Assembly (NCBI RefSeq): GCF_003334765.1
Contig: NZ_QOWT01000006.1
Length of the DNA: 64,000 nucleotides
Source of the DNA: Escherichia coli
GTDB taxonomy: Bacteria; Pseudomonadota; Gammaproteobacteria; Enterobacterales; Enterobacteriaceae
Reading direction: 5' to 3' (one strand)
The stretch's first letter is position 1, and every line of letters begins with the position of its first letter. Below the pieces are notes generated by a model. The model had not been told where the DNA came from and ran no database searches. It saw nothing but the letters and a program-made list of their open reading frames with translations. The translations under genes were made by a program, and so were the position numbers. Shown one piece after another: positions 4,932 to 48,323 of this stretch.

Positions 4932-5998
4932 GCCATCCCCTTCGCGTCAAAGTCAACCACCACATCGCTGGTCAGCGGCAGTGCCTGGCAACTCAACACA
5001 TAACCTGCGGCCAGTTCATCCGGTTCCAGACTGTAATTGGTTTCCATCGCCACTTTGCCACGCAGCACTTTGCATTTGCAGGTCGCACAGACGCCGCCTT
5101 TGCAGGCATAGGGCAGATCCGCCCCCTGGCGCAATGCCGCATCGAGAATGCTTTCATCGTCGGCATTAAGCACGATTTCCCGATCCCGCCCATCCTGACG
5201 TACAGTCACTTTTTGTCCGTCACTTTGCACGTTAACGCTACGTTTGACGCGCGTGCCAGGCGTATTAAACCGCTCCAGATGAATGGTTTTATCTGGCATT
5301 CCCAGTGCTTTTAAGGCGGTTTCCGCGTCATCCATCATCGCCGCCGGACCACAAATAAATGCCTCATCATAAAGACGAAAATTAATGAGCGAGGCCCCAA
5401 GTGACTGTAATTTTTCACCGTCAATACGCCCGTGAAGCAGATCGCTGTCGAGGGTTTCCTGACTGAAAATGCACAACAACTGTAAACGCTGAGGATATTT
5501 GTCTTTCAGGTCTGCCAGTGCCTGGCGAAACATCATGCTCTGGCTGGTACGGTTACCGTAGATCAGGGTGAACTGACTTTCAGGCTCGGTTTGTAAAGTG
5601 GTGGCGATAATCGCCAGCATTGGCGTAATACCTGATCCTGCTGCAATTGCCAGATAGCGCCCCTGGCGTTCGGCCTGCGGCTGATAGCCGAAATGCCCCT
5701 GCGGCACCATGACCTCCAGCGTCATACCCTGGCGGATGTGTTCGCGGGCATAGCGGGAGAAACGTCCGCCTTCAATGGCTTTCACCGCCACACTAATTTC
5801 GCCAGGCAGATAGCTGCGGCAAATGGAGTAACAACGGCGTAATTCTTCACCATCAAAGCTGGCTTTTAAGGTCAAATGTTGACCGGGGCGAAAGCGATAC
5901 GCCTCCTGCAAAGGCTGGGGCACCGCAAAGGTAATGGTCACCGCATCACGGGTTTCCGACTCGACTTTTGCCACTGTTAAGGAATGAAACGTTGTCAT
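4928..5998 (-). CDS. paaE: phenylacetyl-CoA oxygenase reductase subunit (FAD/NAD and 2Fe-2S ferredoxin domains)
   Basis: Track ORF trimmed to ATG at 5996-5998 (MTTFHSLTVAKV...), 356 aa; C-terminal CxxxxCxxC ferredoxin motif. Confidence 0.9.
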   Translation of the reverse strand: MTTFHSLTVAKVESETRDAVTITFAVPQPLQEAYRFRPGQHLTLKASFDGEELRRCYSICRSYLPGEISVAVKAIEGGRFSRYAREHIRQGMTLEVMVPQGHFGYQPQAERQGRYLAIAAGSGITPMLAIIATTLQTEPESQFTLIYGNRTSQSMMFRQALADLKDKYPQRLQLLCIFSQETLDSDLLHGRIDGEKLQSLGASLINFRLYDEAFICGPAAMMDDAETALKALGMPDKTIHLERFNTPGTRVKRSVNVQSDGQKVTVRQDGRDREIVLNADDESILDAALRQGADLPYACKGGVCATCKCKVLRGKVAMETNYSLEPDELAAGYVLSCQALPLTSDVVVDFDAKGMA

Positions 5999-6005
5999 GG
6001 CATCC

Positions 6006-6503
6006 TCAAATACATTTGAAATAATCGAAAGGTTCGCGGCAACTATCGCAGCGGTACAATGCTTTGCAGGCCGTGGAACCAAATTCACTGATAAGTGTGG
6101 TATGGACGCTGGCGCAGCGCGGGCAACGTACTTCTGGCGGCAAATGGGCATGGCAACTGTGTCCGGCGGGCGGGCTAATGCCATACTCTCGCAGACGCTC
6201 ACGGGCATCGGGGGTCATCCAGTCGGTGGTCCATGCCGGGTCGAGTTGCAGCACAACCTGAACGGGGGTAAACCCGTTGGTTGTCATTGCCTCACGTATC
6301 GCGCCAATCAAATGTTCCGTTGCCGGACAACCGGAATATGTCGGCGTAAAGCCGATCACCCATCCTTCTCCCATCTGTGTCACATTACGCACCATGCCTA
6401 AATCAGTAATGGTCAGCACCGGGATCTCCGGGTCCGGGATCTGGCTGAGTAGCGCCCATATCTCATGAACCTGTGGCGGTGCAATGGTGGCCAGACGTTG
6501 CAT
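6006..6503 (-). CDS. paaD: phenylacetate degradation protein PaaD
   Basis: Track ORF trimmed to ATG at 6501-6503 (MQRLATIAPP...), 165 aa. Confidence 0.85.
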   Translation of the reverse strand: MQRLATIAPPQVHEIWALLSQIPDPEIPVLTITDLGMVRNVTQMGEGWVIGFTPTYSGCPATEHLIGAIREAMTTNGFTPVQVVLQLDPAWTTDWMTPDARERLREYGISPPAGHSCHAHLPPEVRCPRCASVHTTLISEFGSTACKALYRCDSCREPFDYFKCI

Positions 6504-6517
6504 ACCCATCTCCTCTG

Positions 6518-7264
6518 TTACCATTGCTGACCGGGCAAGACACGCTGGAGATACTGCATTTCTGCCAGCATGGGTCCAAGGTGTTCGGTATGCAGTCCTT
6601 TTTTACCGCCAGTGCGATACGCCTGCTCTTGCGGTACGTTCAATGTGGCTTCGTTGATCCCGGCAAAAACTTCGGCTTCCCACGCTGCGCGTAAAGTGCG
6701 TGGATCAACCGCAATACCCTCTTCACTCAGTGCAATATCAATCTCGTCGGCATCGAACAGTTCGGCGGTAAAACGCCACAACTTGTTGATGGCCTGCTGC
6801 ATCTTTTGCCCTGATACGTCAGTACCATTGCCCAGTCGCTCCAGCCAGCCACGACTAAAACGCAGGTGATAGCGCGCTTCTTTAATTGCTTTGGCAGAAA
6901 TCGCCGCCAGTTGCGGATCACGGCTTTCCATCAGACGGGTAAAGAGCGCCACATGCCATGCATCGATGAAATACTGGCGTGCAATGGTGTCGGCAAAATT
7001 GCCGTTTGGTTGTTCAACCAACAATAAGTTGCTGAACTGGCGCTCGTCTCGGGTGAAGGCCAGGGTATCTTCATCGCCTTCTCCCGCTAATTCAGCGGCA
7101 TACGATAAGAAGTTGCGTGCCTGACCTAATAAATCGAGGCCAATGTTTGCCAGTGCGAGATCGATTTCCAGTTCCGGTGCGTGACCGCACCATTCACCCA
7201 ACCGCTGGGAGAGCACCAGGCAGTTATCGCCCAGGCGCAAGGTGTAAGCCGTTAACTGATTCAT
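6518..7264 (-). CDS. paaC: phenylacetyl-CoA 1,2-epoxidase subunit C
   Basis: Track ORF trimmed to ATG at 7262-7264 (MNQLTAYTLRL...), 248 aa. Confidence 0.88.
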   Translation of the reverse strand: MNQLTAYTLRLGDNCLVLSQRLGEWCGHAPELEIDLALANIGLDLLGQARNFLSYAAELAGEGDEDTLAFTRDERQFSNLLLVEQPNGNFADTIARQYFIDAWHVALFTRLMESRDPQLAAISAKAIKEARYHLRFSRGWLERLGNGTDVSGQKMQQAINKLWRFTAELFDADEIDIALSEEGIAVDPRTLRAAWEAEVFAGINEATLNVPQEQAYRTGGKKGLHTEHLGPMLAEMQYLQRVLPGQQW

Positions 7265-43327: not shown

Positions 43328-44941
43328 TCAATGCTTCACAATATACATAGTCCGACTGTACGCCACATCTTCAGGATTATTAATGGGATAACCTTTCAGC
43401 CACGGCTTGATTAATCGTCCATTGGTATATTGATAAATTGGTGCAATCGGTGCTTGCTCCATGAGGATTTTTTCTGCCGCGTTGTAATCGGCATTACGCG
43501 CTTTAACGGTATTTTCCGTCGATGCCTGGGCCAGAACTTTGTCATATGCCGGATTGTTAAAGCGTGAAATATTTCCTGAATGCGTTGACGTTAATAATGT
43601 CAGGAAAGTGGAGGGTTCATTATAATCCCCCACCCACGAGGCGCGGATAACATCAAAATTGCCGGTGTTACGGCTATCGATATAGGTTTTCCATTCCTGA
43701 TTTTGCAATTTAACATCTACGCCAAGGTTCTTTTTCCACATCGATGCTACAGCAATCGCAATTTTTTGATGGTTTTCTGAAGTGTTATACAAAAGCGTCA
43801 GCTTCAGCGGTTTTTGCGGACCATAACCAGCTGCGCTCAACAAAGTTTTTGCCTGCGCATTCAGTTCTTCCTGACTCATTTGTTCAAACGGCGAAGGTTC
43901 CGGCGTAAATCCCGCGGTAACATCTGGTGTAAAATGCCACGCTGGCTTTTCGCCCGTCCCTAATACTTTTTCGGTCATCAGGCGGCGATCTATCGTCATA
44001 CTTAATGCCAGACGAACGCGCTGATCTGCCGTCGGCCCTTTTTGCGTGTTAAACGCATAATAATAGGTCCCGAGCTGCGGCGGCGTATAAACCTGCCCCG
44101 GAATATCCTTCAACAGCTTCTGATACATATTTTTCGGGAAGGATTCGGTGATATCAATATCCCCCGCGAGGTAACGCTTAGTGGCTGCGGATTCCTGATT
44201 AATTGGCAGGAAGGTCACTTTTTGCAGTACCGTTTTGGCGTTATCCCAATAATGGGTATTCGGTACCACGACCAGTTTTTCATTGACTACGCGCTCTTTA
44301 AGAACATAAGCGCCATTGCCGATCAGATTTCCGGGTTTCGTCCACTCTTTACCGCTTTCTACGTTGGCTTTTTGCACCGGGAAGAAGGCAAAGTTAGCGG
44401 TTAAATTCACAAACCACGGCAACGGTTTATCAAGCTGAATTTTCAAAGTATGGGCATCAACTGCGGTGACGCCAAGCTGGTCAGGCGTAGCTTTACCATC
44501 AATAATCGCCTGTGCGTTGTTGATTCCCGCCAGCGCGGCAAACCATGCAAATGGCGACAATGTTTTTGGGTCCACCAGACGTTGCCAGCTGTAGACAAAA
44601 TCTTGCGCCGTTACCGGTGTGCCATCCGCCCATTTTGCGTTATCGCGCAGGGTAAAAGTCCAGATACGGTTGTCATTACTTTTCCACTGAGTCGCAACGC
44701 CGGGGACAATCTCCCCTTTTTCGTTCTGATTCACCAGACCTTCAAACAGATCGCGAATGACCTGAATCTCTGGCAGGCCCACGGCTTTAGCGGGATCCAG
44801 CGACGCAGGCTCATCTTTAATGTGGCGCACCAGCTCCTGCTTCTCTGCCAGTACTGTGCCGCTCGGAACTTCTGCAGCATACGAAAGAGAAATGCTGCTG
44901 ACCAACAGCGCACAACACGTGACTGAAACAGAGTGCTTCAT
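43328..44941 (-). CDS. mppA: periplasmic murein tripeptide (L-Ala-gamma-D-Glu-mDAP) binding protein
   Basis: Track ORF trimmed to ATG at 44939-44941 (MKHSVSVTCCALLVSSISLSYA signal peptide), 537 aa; SBP family 5. Confidence 0.9.
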   Translation of the reverse strand: MKHSVSVTCCALLVSSISLSYAAEVPSGTVLAEKQELVRHIKDEPASLDPAKAVGLPEIQVIRDLFEGLVNQNEKGEIVPGVATQWKSNDNRIWTFTLRDNAKWADGTPVTAQDFVYSWQRLVDPKTLSPFAWFAALAGINNAQAIIDGKATPDQLGVTAVDAHTLKIQLDKPLPWFVNLTANFAFFPVQKANVESGKEWTKPGNLIGNGAYVLKERVVNEKLVVVPNTHYWDNAKTVLQKVTFLPINQESAATKRYLAGDIDITESFPKNMYQKLLKDIPGQVYTPPQLGTYYYAFNTQKGPTADQRVRLALSMTIDRRLMTEKVLGTGEKPAWHFTPDVTAGFTPEPSPFEQMSQEELNAQAKTLLSAAGYGPQKPLKLTLLYNTSENHQKIAIAVASMWKKNLGVDVKLQNQEWKTYIDSRNTGNFDVIRASWVGDYNEPSTFLTLLTSTHSGNISRFNNPAYDKVLAQASTENTVKARNADYNAAEKILMEQAPIAPIYQYTNGRLIKPWLKGYPINNPEDVAYSRTMYIVKH

Positions 44942-44998
44942 AAGTTTCCCTCTAACCGACATTAAAATTGATGCGTAATTATTTGTTTCGCCTTAAAG

Positions 44999-45028
44999 AA
45001 ATGCAAACAACTTCCATCAAAAAAGTGA
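44999..45028. repeat. 30-bp repeat copy A (AAATGCAAACAACTTCCATCAAAAAAGTGA), 58-87 bp upstream of mppA
   Basis: 28/30 identity to copy B at 47470-47499. Confidence 0.8.
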
Positions 45029-45277
45029 CAAAGGAAGCATCAAATGTTTTAAGTATCAATATATCAAATCAGATTTAGTGTAAATAATAGTCTCCAAAAT
45101 GCGGTAAAGCACATAGAACTCCGAACACTACGTTCGGGCTTCGCACGTTCAAACCCGTTTTCGGTATCATAATCAGCATCTGTCGCCATTGTACGAAGAA
45201 TAAAAAATGACCAAAACGTTGAAAGGAACTGAGAATACGTTAAGAGAAGAATTAAATTAATGTATCAGCAAGTAGTG

Positions 45278-46177
45278 CTAAACAGCACCTTTATACTTCA
45301 GCCTATCTATAAATAATGAGAATGCCGAGCCAGCATGTCGACGGTGTGGATAGTACAGGTGATAACCGGGTAAATCTGGTGTGAATTTATCCAAAACACG
45401 TATCAGTTTTTTTTCTTTAATAGCCCGCTCAACCTGATCATAAGGTAGATACGCCAATCCATGCCCATCAATTGCAGCATCAATGATCAGGTCTATCGTA
45501 TTCAGTAAAAGCTGACCTTCCATGCGAACACGAACTTCACGTCCACCGCGTATTAATCTCCAGCGATTTGCTGTACCCGATGTGGGAAGATACAAATTAA
45601 TTGCCTGATGATCTATTAATTGTGACACTGACGTTGGAACACTTCGGCGAGAAAAATAATCCGGTGAGCCAACAATAGCCATTGGTATATCTGGCCCGAT
45701 TCGAATGGCGATCATATCTTTATCCATCTCCCCACCCAGACGGACGCCTGCATCAAAACGTTCAGAAACGACATCGGTCAAACCATAATCAATGGTGAGC
45801 TGAATATCAATTTCAGGATGCGATTTCAGGAATGTGCGCATTGCTGGTAACAATATCGTTTTTGCTGCATGTTCTACAGTAGTAATACGTATTGTCCCGG
45901 ATGGGCGGTTCTGCAGATCGCTCAGGGATGCCATGGCTGAATCTATGTCATGCAACATAGGGCCAAGAACAGACAAAAGATGCTCGCCCGCTTCAGTTGG
46001 AACAACGCTGCGCGTGGTTCGCGTCAGAAGCCGCAATCCCAATCGTTCTTCTATACGACGCACTATCTGGCTTAAAGCTGACTGCGCCATGCTCAGGCGG
46101 GCTGCTGCACGAGTGAAGCTACGCTCCTCTGCAACGACGACAAACGCCATCAGATCAGCGATTTCTTCACGCTTCAT
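45278..46177 (-). CDS. pgrR: LysR-family regulator of peptidoglycan recycling
   Basis: 299-aa ORF with N-terminal LysR HTH; divergent from ycjY. Confidence 0.88.
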   Translation of the reverse strand: MKREEIADLMAFVVVAEERSFTRAAARLSMAQSALSQIVRRIEERLGLRLLTRTTRSVVPTEAGEHLLSVLGPMLHDIDSAMASLSDLQNRPSGTIRITTVEHAAKTILLPAMRTFLKSHPEIDIQLTIDYGLTDVVSERFDAGVRLGGEMDKDMIAIRIGPDIPMAIVGSPDYFSRRSVPTSVSQLIDHQAINLYLPTSGTANRWRLIRGGREVRVRMEGQLLLNTIDLIIDAAIDGHGLAYLPYDQVERAIKEKKLIRVLDKFTPDLPGYHLYYPHRRHAGSAFSLFIDRLKYKGAV

Positions 46178-46201
46178 TCAGTATCTCCATGCAATCTATT
46201 A

Positions 46202-46244
46202 ATCATTTAAATGATAGGTCTAATCATGATTTTGGGTCTAATCA
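46202..46244. promoter_or_regulatory. candidate PgrR operator: 14-bp palindrome ATCATTTAAATGAT plus two GGTCTAATCA direct repeats
   Basis: Palindrome at 46202-46215; direct repeats at 46217-46226 and 46235-46244 in the pgrR/ycjY divergent region. Confidence 0.4.
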
Positions 46245-46302
46245 ACTTAATGATCAATATCTATAGTGATATCACCAACCGTTAAAACGAACCGACAACT
46301 CC

Positions 46303-47260
46303 ATGAGGAACGGAATGATGAATAATAAAGTCAGCTTCACTAACAGCAATAATCCAACCATCTCTTTGTCTGCAGTGATCTATTTCCCTCCAAAATTTGA
46401 TGAAACCCGTCAGTATCAGGCAATTGTGTTATCTCACCCAGGTGGGGGCGTTAAAGAACAAACGGCCGGAACCTATGCCAAAAAACTGGCGGAAAAGGGA
46501 TTTGTCACTATTGCTTATGACGCATCTTATCAAGGTGAAAGTGGCGGCGAGCCGCGTCAGTTAGAAAACCCATACATTCGTACTGAAGACATCAGTGCCG
46601 TGATTGATTACCTGACAACGCTTTCTTATGTCGACAATACCCGAATTGGTGCGATGGGAATTTGTGCCGGTGCAGGATATACAGCCAATGCTGCAATTCA
46701 GGATCGCCGCATCAAGGCCATCGGTACCGTTAGTGCGGTCAATATTGGTTCGATATTCCGTAATGGTTGGGAAAACAATGTGAAATCTATTGATGCCCTG
46801 CCATACGTTGAAGCGGGTTCAAACGCCAGAACCAGCGATATTAGCAGCGGAGAATACGCCATTATGCCACTGGCACCAATGAAGGAGTCCGATGCGCCGA
46901 ACGAAGAACTGCGTCAGGCCTGGGAGTATTACCACACCCCTCGCGCGCAGTATCCAACAGCACCGGGTTACGCTACTTTGCGCAGCCTTAAGTTACGCTA
47001 CTTTGCGCAGCCTTAACCAGATTATTACCTATGATGCTTACCATATGGCGGAAGTGTACCTGACTCAGCCGACGCAGATTGTGGCGGGCAGCCAGGCAGG
47101 GAGCAAATGGATGAGTGACGACCTGTACGATCGAGCATCAAGCCAGGATAAACGCTATCACATTGTTGAAGGCGCAAACCATATGGATCTTTATGACGGC
47201 AAAGCCTATGTGGCTGAAGCAATTTCAGTATTAGCTCCGTTCTTTGAGGAAACTCTGTAA
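46303..47260 (+). pseudogene. ycjY: ycjY (dienelactone hydrolase / S9-like hydrolase) disrupted by a 25-bp tandem duplication
   Basis: Track ORFs 46303..47016 and 46892..47260 are in different frames; deleting one 25-bp copy fuses them into one ORF of about 310 codons. Confidence 0.8.
46967..47016 (+). repeat. perfect 25-bp tandem duplication (GTTACGCTACTTTGCGCAGCCTTAA x2) inside ycjY
   Basis: Read directly at 46967-46991 and 46992-47016. Confidence 0.95.
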
Positions 47261-47325
47261 TGAAACATATTCAAATCCGCAATAGTGATATGGACTGGCA
47301 TATTGCTGCCAATAATCTGGGATAA
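47260..47325 (+). CDS. ymjD: 21-codon ORF (MKHIQIRNSDMDWHIAANNLG), possible deletion remnant
   Basis: ATG overlaps the ycjY stop (TAATG); name recalled from K-12 annotation with uncertainty. Confidence 0.4.
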   Translation: MKHIQIRNSDMDWHIAANNLG

Positions 47326-47330
47326 TTTTC

Positions 47331-47513
47331 ATGAAAAATGTACTGATTCTTGGTGCTGGCGGTCAGATAGCCCGCCATGTGATTAATCAACTGGCAGATA
47401 AGCAAACCATTAAACAAACTTTATTTGCCCGTCAGCCAGCAAAAATCCACAAACCCTATCCAACTAATAAAATGCAAACAACTTCCGGCAAAAAAGTGAT
47501 ACAAGATCGATGA
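47331..47513 (+). pseudogene. ymjC: N-terminal fragment of an NAD(P)-binding (NmrA-like) protein
   Basis: 60-aa ORF with Rossmann motif ILGAGGQIARH; truncated, and its 3' end runs into repeat copy B. Confidence 0.6.
47470..47499. repeat. 30-bp repeat copy B (AAATGCAAACAACTTCCGGCAAAAAAGTGA), 96-125 bp upstream of mpaA
   Basis: 28/30 identity to copy A. Confidence 0.8.
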
Positions 47514-47594
47514 CATAGCGTTGAAGAAAAGGATTTGATAATCCGCAAAATTTGCACAACACTGCCTGTAATACTTCCTGAACCAGAGACGATC

Positions 47595-48297
47595 ATGACC
47601 GTAACCCGCCCACGCGCCGAACGCGGCGCATTTCCGCCCGGAACAGAACATTACGGACGTTCATTATTGGGCGCGCCGTTAATCTGGTTTCCTGCCCCTG
47701 CAGCCAGCCGCGAAAGTGGTTTGATTCTGGCTGGCACTCACGGTGATGAAAACTCTTCGGTCGTCACGCTCTCCTGTGCTCTGCGGACGTTGACACCTTC
47801 TTTGCGCCGTCATCATGTGGTGCTGTGTGTGAATCCTGACGGCTGCCAGTTGGGGTTACGGGCCAATGCTAATGGTGTGGATTTAAACAGAAACTTTCCG
47901 GCGGCGAACTGGAAGGAAGGTGAAACCGTTTATCGCTGGAACAGCGCCGCTGAAGAACGCGATGTCGTATTACTGACAGGTGACAAACCTGGCTCCGAAC
48001 CTGAAACCCAGGCGCTGTGCCAGCTTATACACCGCATTCAACCTGCCTGGGTGGTCTCATTCCACGATCCACTGGCCTGTATTGAAGATCCCAGACACAG
48101 CGAATTAGGCGAATGGCTGGCTCAGGCGTTTGAATTGCCTCTGGTAACCAGCGTCGGTTATGAAACGCCTGGCTCTTTCGGCAGTTGGTGTGCAGATCTG
48201 AACTTGCATTGCATCACCGCAGAGTTTCCGCCCATCTCCTCCGACGAAGCCAGCGAAAAATATCTCTTTGCGATGGCAAACTTGCTGCGCTGGCATC

Positions 48298-48323
<26 letters not shown>
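47595..48323 (+). CDS. mpaA: murein peptide amidase A (gamma-D-Glu-mDAP amidase, M14 family)
   Basis: Track ORF trimmed to ATG at 47595 (MTVTRPRAERG...), 242 aa. Confidence 0.88.

Follow-up and report, generated by a model that had tools for sequence, protein, structure and literature searches.

A 30-bp direct repeat upstream of mppA and mpaA in Escherichia coli as a probable duplication of their ancestral control region around an inserted cassette

We analysed a 64,000-nt stretch of Escherichia coli DNA (contig NZ_QOWT01000006.1; the whole stretch is called the window below) in which a 30-bp imperfect direct repeat lies upstream of two murein-peptide genes, mppA and mpaA. The two 30-mers are very probably a duplicated stretch of the ancestral divergent control region between mppA and mpaA, and they now flank a foreign cassette of four genes. 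The pair is an undescribed example of an ordinary kind of evolutionary scar; a literature search found no paper that mentions it.

Copy A (AAATGCAAACAACTTCCATCAAAAAAGTGA) is at positions 44999-45028 and copy B (AAATGCAAACAACTTCCGGCAAAAAAGTGA) at positions 47470-47499, both read directly on the plus strand; in their local context they appear as …TTCCATCAAAA… and …TTCCGGCAAAA…, respectively. The copies are in the same orientation, are identical at 28 of 30 positions and are spaced 2471 nt from start to start. We refer to copy A as the 'AT' type and to copy B as the 'GG' type. A scan of the whole window with up to 3 mismatches returned copies A and B as the sole matches, and the chance expectation of the 30-mer in 100 dinucleotide shuffles was nil (mean 0.00, maximum 0), which bears out the imperfect repeat reported at these positions in a preliminary description of the locus. 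The mppA start codon (ATG at 44941, minus strand) places copy A 58-87 nt upstream of that gene, and the mpaA start codon (ATG at 47595) places copy B 96-125 nt upstream of the other. These distances had been given correctly, as had the bracketing of the pgrR-ycjY-ymjD-ymjC segment by the two copies and the gene names, which agree with the RefSeq annotation of near-identical genomes. A dispersed repeat family of the REP, ERIC or MITE type was ruled out, given the two copies in the window and, for either copy type, a median of one place per E. coli genome.

The arrangement in related species was investigated in 80 loci, one genome per species, which were fetched via MpaA and onto which eight proteins were mapped. 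In about 75 of the 80, mppA and mpaA are direct divergent neighbours with spacers of mostly 182-185 nt, and these uninterrupted loci contain no pgrR, ycjY or short-chain dehydrogenase/reductase (SDR) gene between them. The taxa include E. albertii, E. whittamii, three further Escherichia lineages, Citrobacter, Enterobacter, Leclercia, Kluyvera and Pluralibacter. In five Escherichia loci (L004, L005, L007, L008 and L012) the spacer measures exactly 182 nt, and its only 30-mer, which is of the 'GG' type, lies at a distance of 58 nt from mppA and of 95 nt from mpaA; copy B of the window is of the same type as this single outgroup copy. Window positions 44942-45028 (87 nt) and 47500-47594 (95 nt) together give 182 nt that are base-for-base colinear with the Escherichia empty sites. 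Since the colinear empty site holds one 30-mer, the segment 45029-47469 is an insertion, with the 30 nt of the insertion point on both its sides. In other words, two copies on the same strand bracket a segment that is missing from relatives, and the empty site has one copy. Conservation of both copies in other Enterobacteriaceae had been proposed as a check: the 30-mer is indeed kept across genera, at a fixed position relative to both mppA and mpaA, but as a single copy in uninterrupted spacers.

The history that we propose is as follows. The ancestor would have had mppA and mpaA back to back, with a spacer of about 182 nt and a single 30-mer in its middle. A foreign cassette with pgrR, ycjY, a second hydrolase gene and a gene for an SDR/NmrA-type oxidoreductase would have landed in this spacer in the E. 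coli lineage. That the 30 nt of the insertion point now flank it on either side is the step that the comparison of loci shows. Copy A would have stayed with mppA and would supply the predicted -35 hexamer and the T-rich upstream part of its promoter, as consensus and conservation suggest, and copy B would have stayed before the native mpaA leader, with no demonstrated role. The present-day pair would mainly be a substrate for recombination, i.e. for gene conversion and for precise deletion of the cassette.

The cassette consists of the LysR regulator gene pgrR, two alpha/beta hydrolase genes and one SDR gene. The same LysR-hydrolase-hydrolase-SDR module is found, about 79% identical at the nucleotide level, on conjugative Klebsiella plasmids and in the chromosomes of Raoultella, Kluyvera, Klebsiella and Serratia. 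Its neighbours differ each time, i.e. the insert is also found elsewhere and in unrelated contexts, which marks it as foreign. The homology spans exactly the stretch from the stop codon of pgrR to about 70 nt past the SDR gene, and homologues of pgrR itself (87-89% identity) adjoin the matching hydrolase genes in other genera; more distant versions of the cassette occur on Rhizobium and Agrobacterium plasmids. Because pgrR is within a mobile module found in other contexts, PgrR is the cassette's own LysR regulator. A SELEX (systematic evolution of ligands by exponential enrichment) study located the PgrR site in the ycjY/ycjZ spacer, i.e. inside the island, and listed mpaA in a ycjY-ymjDC-mpaA unit controlled by PgrR (PMC5934670). 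In E. coli the island has a left arm of 248 bp, which contains a queH fragment, and a right arm of 115-185 bp. In Kluyvera cryocrescens CP134165.1 (L095, positions 6000-6602) the pgrR homologue is followed directly downstream by a partial phage-integrase gene; the other genera have unrelated neighbours at this place.

Three forms of the region were seen among the annotated E. coli loci, which we call full, hydrolase-deleted and K-12-like. In the full form (L002), ycjY is accompanied by another alpha/beta hydrolase gene (310 aa) and by an intact SDR gene (212 aa). In the second form (L003) most of the second hydrolase gene is gone, and in the K-12-like form (L001 and the window) a further 665 bp are gone, which cuts the SDR gene to 46 codons (ymjC). 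An evenly spaced sample of genomes contained the full, the hydrolase-deleted and the doubly deleted K-12-like form at about one third each. Copy B is present in all three at a constant distance from mpaA, and where the 212-aa SDR gene is intact, 166-185 nt separate the SDR stop codon from copy B downstream of it. The intact second hydrolase and SDR/NmrA-type genes of other E. coli are represented by positions 4736-6324 of L002, the counterpart of window positions 47260-47468; in O145 strains the second hydrolase gene is frameshifted. The K-12-type deletion junction also makes a sigma-70-like match directed towards mpaA (TCCACA-16-TAAAAT, window 47446-47473), the second hexamer of which extends into the start of copy B; it is no more than a match to the consensus and is within chance expectation.

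The two copies still recombine with each other, and precise loss of the cassette restores the 182-nt spacer. A contiguous mppA-mpaA site of 182 nt is found in 173 of 5,426 complete E. coli genomes. In essentially all genomes with the island (5,252), copy A can be told by its dinucleotide 'AT', and a query specific for the junction found this dinucleotide joined to the right flank of copy B in 14 of the 173 empty sites. The other empty sites fit the 'GG' type, which was confirmed for L086. The clearest case is CP131_Sichuan (L085), which has a single chimeric copy and no mismatch to the window over flanks of 1,671 and 1,764 nt; its junction is as expected if the crossover fell in the right-hand 11 nt of the 30-mer. 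Empty sites together with such a chimera are the traces of precise removal of a repeat-flanked insertion. A different outcome is seen in O145:H28, O139:H1 and some swine strains, which have kept the island and carry 'AT' in both copies. In E. coli O145 RM9872 (L092), for example, the copies at 992-1021 and 5001-5030 are of the 'AT' type and identical at 30 of 30 positions, and two places of this type are found in about 61 genomes. An island flanked by two 'AT' copies indicates gene conversion between the copies.

The distribution of conserved positions along the ancestral spacer was examined by aligning the 75 uninterrupted spacers, in which four or five conserved blocks can be recognised. The blocks on the mppA side are ATGCGTAATTATTTGTTTCG, GAAATGCAAAyAACTT and then AAAaTTGA; those on the mpaA side, TTTGATAATCCGC and TTTGCACAACACTGCC, are within the 95 nt kept by mpaA and outside the repeat. 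On the minus strand the first two blocks hold TTGCAT (45001-45006) and AATAAT 17 nt apart, and a consensus scan of this strand returned TTTGCA-18-AATAAT at 45007-44978 (alternatively TTGCAT-17-AATAAT). Both predicted mppA promoter hexamers are within the most conserved blocks of the spacers, the -10 hexamer AATAAT (44978-44983, minus strand) in the block ATGCGTAATTATTTGTTTCG. Copy A would cover the predicted mppA -35 hexamer with its left end and the T-rich stretch upstream of it with the remainder. The 30-mer is a part of the control region of the two murein-peptide genes, as the preliminary description had it.

The conservation of the two copies within E. coli fits a constrained copy A and a little constrained copy B: in a rough, word-based search with different 10-nt flanks for the two, copy A with its flank was recognisable in 5,252 of the 5,426 genomes (4,666 exact) and copy B in 4,543 (3,691 exact). 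Variants of copy B include an extra A (L002) and a C-to-T change (L003). On the mpaA side the block TTTGCACAACACTGCC is at about 47553-47568 of the window (by direct count, 27-42 nt before the mpaA ATG) and is almost invariant in the 75 spacers. It contains CACAACA, the C/A-rich motif of targets of the small RNA GcvB; a literature search found no link between GcvB and mpaA. A comparison of the 30-mer with the sites of PurR, CytR, CRP and TyrR showed half-site resemblances only. The literature on the starts and regulators of mppA and mpaA gave only a co-variation of mppA with ynaI and GadY and a peak of the RpoS holoenzyme in mppA-ynaI.

Several other explanations of the repeat have to be weighed against the insertion of a cassette into the ancestral spacer. 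The pair had been suggested to be a recombination scar left by the truncation of ymjC, and it is true that an alignment with the intact gene puts the right end of the 665-bp deletion, which has an AAT or AATA microhomology, only 1-4 nt to the left of copy B. However, the strains with an intact SDR gene (L002, L003 and L092) have copy B, at an unchanged distance from mpaA, so that the truncation did not create it, and the type of copy B is that of the single copy in species without the cassette. Absence of the repeat from genomes with an intact ymjC had been named as a result that would refute the proposal, and the repeat is present there. That copy B is a by-product of this deletion is refuted by these strains and species; the idea of a scar was right in kind but was attached to the wrong event, which was the insertion of the cassette. 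Likewise, the placement of copy B at the 3' end of the ymjC fragment was right in that the open reading frame (ORF) 47331-47513 crosses the copy, but the homology to SDR ends at about 47468, before copy B. A small RNA, or a structured leader shared by mppA and mpaA, had been proposed as well, and that the repeat is one or forms part of one is also very improbable. The only support for this is the position upstream of two related genes. An Rfam scan of 44700-47800 with a permissive threshold found nothing at or near either copy (two weak matches lie away from the copies, and no match reaches its threshold), the folding energy of both strands of both copies is no better than that of shuffles (z from -1.3 to +1.7), and no terminator adjoins either copy. 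Moreover, copy A is upstream of the predicted mppA -10 hexamer, which would leave it outside the mppA transcript.

The remaining alternatives concern the role of the 30-mer and the manner of its duplication. Both copies could have been selected as operators of one putative regulator, keeping the uptake of murein tripeptide by MppA and its degradation by MpaA co-regulated after the split. The ancestral 30-mer is conserved beyond the -35 hexamer (blocks GAAATGCAAAyAACTT and AAAaTTGA), contains a dyad, CAACTT-N8-AAGTTG, in several genera (e.g. Leclercia) and lies where one factor could contact both divergent promoters; furthermore, a plain insertion to the right of the 30-mer leaves mppA intact, so only mpaA gains from the duplication. 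But in Escherichia the dyad has degenerated, no factor is known to bind the 30-mer, and the mppA -35 hexamer and its upstream element explain the conservation equally well. PgrR was rejected as a candidate for binding the 30-mer, as its SELEX target is not the 30-mer but the ycjY/ycjZ spacer within the island (PMC5934670). Within E. coli, copy B varies more than copy A and has fewer exact matches, which weighs against both copies being kept for co-regulation. We consider such a pair of selected operators unlikely, and the shared cis-regulatory element of the preliminary description holds historically, as one ancestral copy between divergent genes that overlaps the predicted mppA -35, but not as present co-regulation. 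Slightly more doubtful is a broader proposal, in which the 30-mer is the operator of a putative regulator that couples mppA and mpaA across the Enterobacteriaceae, insertions were tolerated only if they duplicated the operator and both copies work, or, as a variant, the repeat is the footprint of an uncharacterised, recombinase-free insertion mechanism that makes duplications of about 30 bp. Less probable again is the possibility that the copies are the attachment sites attL and attR of an integrase-driven element that attached at the 30-mer and later lost its integrase. In favour of this are the 30 bp, a typical length of an att identity segment, the single copy in the empty site with precise excision, the decayed queH fragment in the left arm, which implies that internal deletions have occurred, and the partial integrase gene beside the Kluyvera cryocrescens cassette. 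Against it, the annotations and ORFs of the three island forms show only pgrR, hydrolases, SDR and the queH fragment, with no ORF or remnant of an integrase (tyrosine or serine recombinase), excisionase or transposase; there is no tRNA or transfer-messenger RNA target and there are no inverted repeats at the island ends, as a transposon or insertion sequence would have. Moreover, the homologous cassettes elsewhere lack this or a similar flanking sequence, and in the 80 genomes of other species no related or other element uses the site with this repeat, the cdt insertion of Salmonella arizonae being repeat-free.

If the pair is the result of insertion into the ancestral spacer, the duplication may have come about in a one-off illegitimate event of one of two sorts: the fill-in of a staggered break at either end of the incoming DNA, or a replication template switch that left the spacer and re-entered it 30 nt upstream. 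We infer that a one-off illegitimate event is the most likely route and a dedicated integrase or transposase a less likely one, because there is no recombinase, no tRNA target and no inverted repeat and because the cassette is repeat-free elsewhere. In L002, the most intact island form, the first 17 island nt after copy A (2530-2546, CACAGGAAGCATAAAAT) match the ancestral downstream sequence (TACAAGATCGATAACAT) at 11 of 17 positions, which exceeds chance for AT-rich DNA but was seen post hoc. Either an original duplication of greater length or a homeologous join may have left this match.

A number of points weigh against this account. The mppA promoter is predicted from consensus and conservation, and the comparison of the conservation of copies A and B is a rough one. 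Neither island arm matches anything beside the homologous cassettes, and a search via homologues of the second hydrolase and of PgrR, which covered Serratia, Klebsiella, Raoultella and Kluyvera loci, did not find the direct donor; at the homologous loci the queH fragment, the island arms and any sequence like the 30-mer were all not found. About 150 empty E. coli sites of the 'GG' type may never have had the island, so that only the 14 'AT' genomes can be counted firmly as true excisions. Finally, the account offers no explanation for the step that created the 30-bp duplication.

The gene order in near-identical E. coli genomes, according to their RefSeq annotation, is ynaI, mppA(-), pgrR(-), ycjY(+), SDR fragment(+), mpaA(+) and ycjG(-). 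The coding sequence of mppA (murein tripeptide binding protein) occupies 43328-44941 on the minus strand, as judged from the ORF and from the RefSeq annotation of these genomes. The island (45029-47469) measures 2,441 bp here, and its intact form measures 3,978 bp (L002, 2530-6507). Its left arm holds the queH pseudogene fragment (45088-45180, minus strand), which was identified from the RefSeq annotation of L002 and L092 and from its translation; an NCBIfam search gave no match, and the fragment is probably a relic of the donor context. It is followed by pgrR, also named ycjZ (45278-46177, minus strand; ORF and annotation), and on the plus strand by ycjY (46315-47260). The latter is frameshifted in the window by a perfect 25-bp tandem duplication (GTTACGCTACTTTGCGCAGCCTTAA, twice, at 46967-47016), giving two ORFs, 46303-47016 and 46892-47260; the duplication is not found in K-12-like genomes (6,476 vs 6,501 nt). 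The remnant of the second hydrolase gene, ymjD (47260-47325, plus strand), was recognised by comparison with the annotated intact 310-aa gene of L002, with which its first 18 residues agree at all positions but one. The 46 N-terminal codons of the SDR gene, ymjC, are at 47331-47468 (plus strand), the 665-bp deletion having taken the remainder. After copy B follow the native mpaA upstream region from the ancestral spacer (47500-47594, plus strand; blocks TTTGATAATCCGC and TTTGCACAACACTGCC) and the coding sequence of mpaA (47595-48323, plus strand), which is annotated in RefSeq as a murein tripeptide amidase gene.

Another insertion in the same spacer was seen in Salmonella enterica subsp. arizonae and diarizonae (L024, 5449-7677; L026), where a three-gene operon encodes a CdtB-family protein (NCBIfam NF011787, E = 1e-113) and two putative lipoprotein partners. 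No repeat flanks this cdt insertion, and the conserved promoter blocks on the mppA side are replaced. The mppA-mpaA spacer appears to be a recurrent landing place.

The main value of these results is interpretive; apart from the new reading of the locus, we are dealing with an ordinary evolutionary scar. The name 'peptidoglycan recycling regulator' of PgrR rests partly on the inclusion of mpaA in the ycjY-ymjDC-mpaA unit (PMC5934670). The gene is part of a mobile regulator-hydrolase-oxidoreductase cassette, which is found without a link to murein genes on plasmids and in other genera. The position of the cassette between mppA and mpaA would be an accident of insertion, and mpaA retains its ancestral upstream region; pgrR and the hydrolase operon are newcomers that split the ancestral pair, and many E. 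coli lineages are losing the cassette or have it in a state of decay. The locus also shows cleanly, in a natural setting, how a short repeat can both preserve a promoter when DNA is inserted and permit the precise loss of the insert, with the intact, decayed, converted and excised states all segregating in one species.

The repeat pair can be compared with several known systems. Like the attL and attR sites of integrase islands and prophages, it consists of direct repeats that bracket acquired DNA, the empty site has a single copy and the loss is precise. It differs from them in that there is no integrase or excisionase, no tRNA target and no reuse of the site in the 80 genomes, and in that no such repeats bound the cassette elsewhere. 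As in the target-site duplication of a transposon, part of the target occurs once before the insertion and flanks the insert on both sides after it, but here it measures 30 bp, and neither a transposase nor terminal inverted repeats are present; the usual target-site duplications are 2-15 bp long. The ancestral state resembles compact divergent promoter regions, i.e. the 30-mer is in the middle of a 182-nt spacer between functionally linked genes and overlaps one predicted -35 hexamer, although no shared regulator is known and the E. coli region is split and partly duplicated. The present behaviour of the repeat, as opposed to its origin, is described by the deletions between short direct repeats of E. 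coli (slipped misalignment or short-homology recombination): 2.4-4 kb are lost precisely together with one copy, chimeric survivors place the crossover inside the repeat, and there is no difference in kind.

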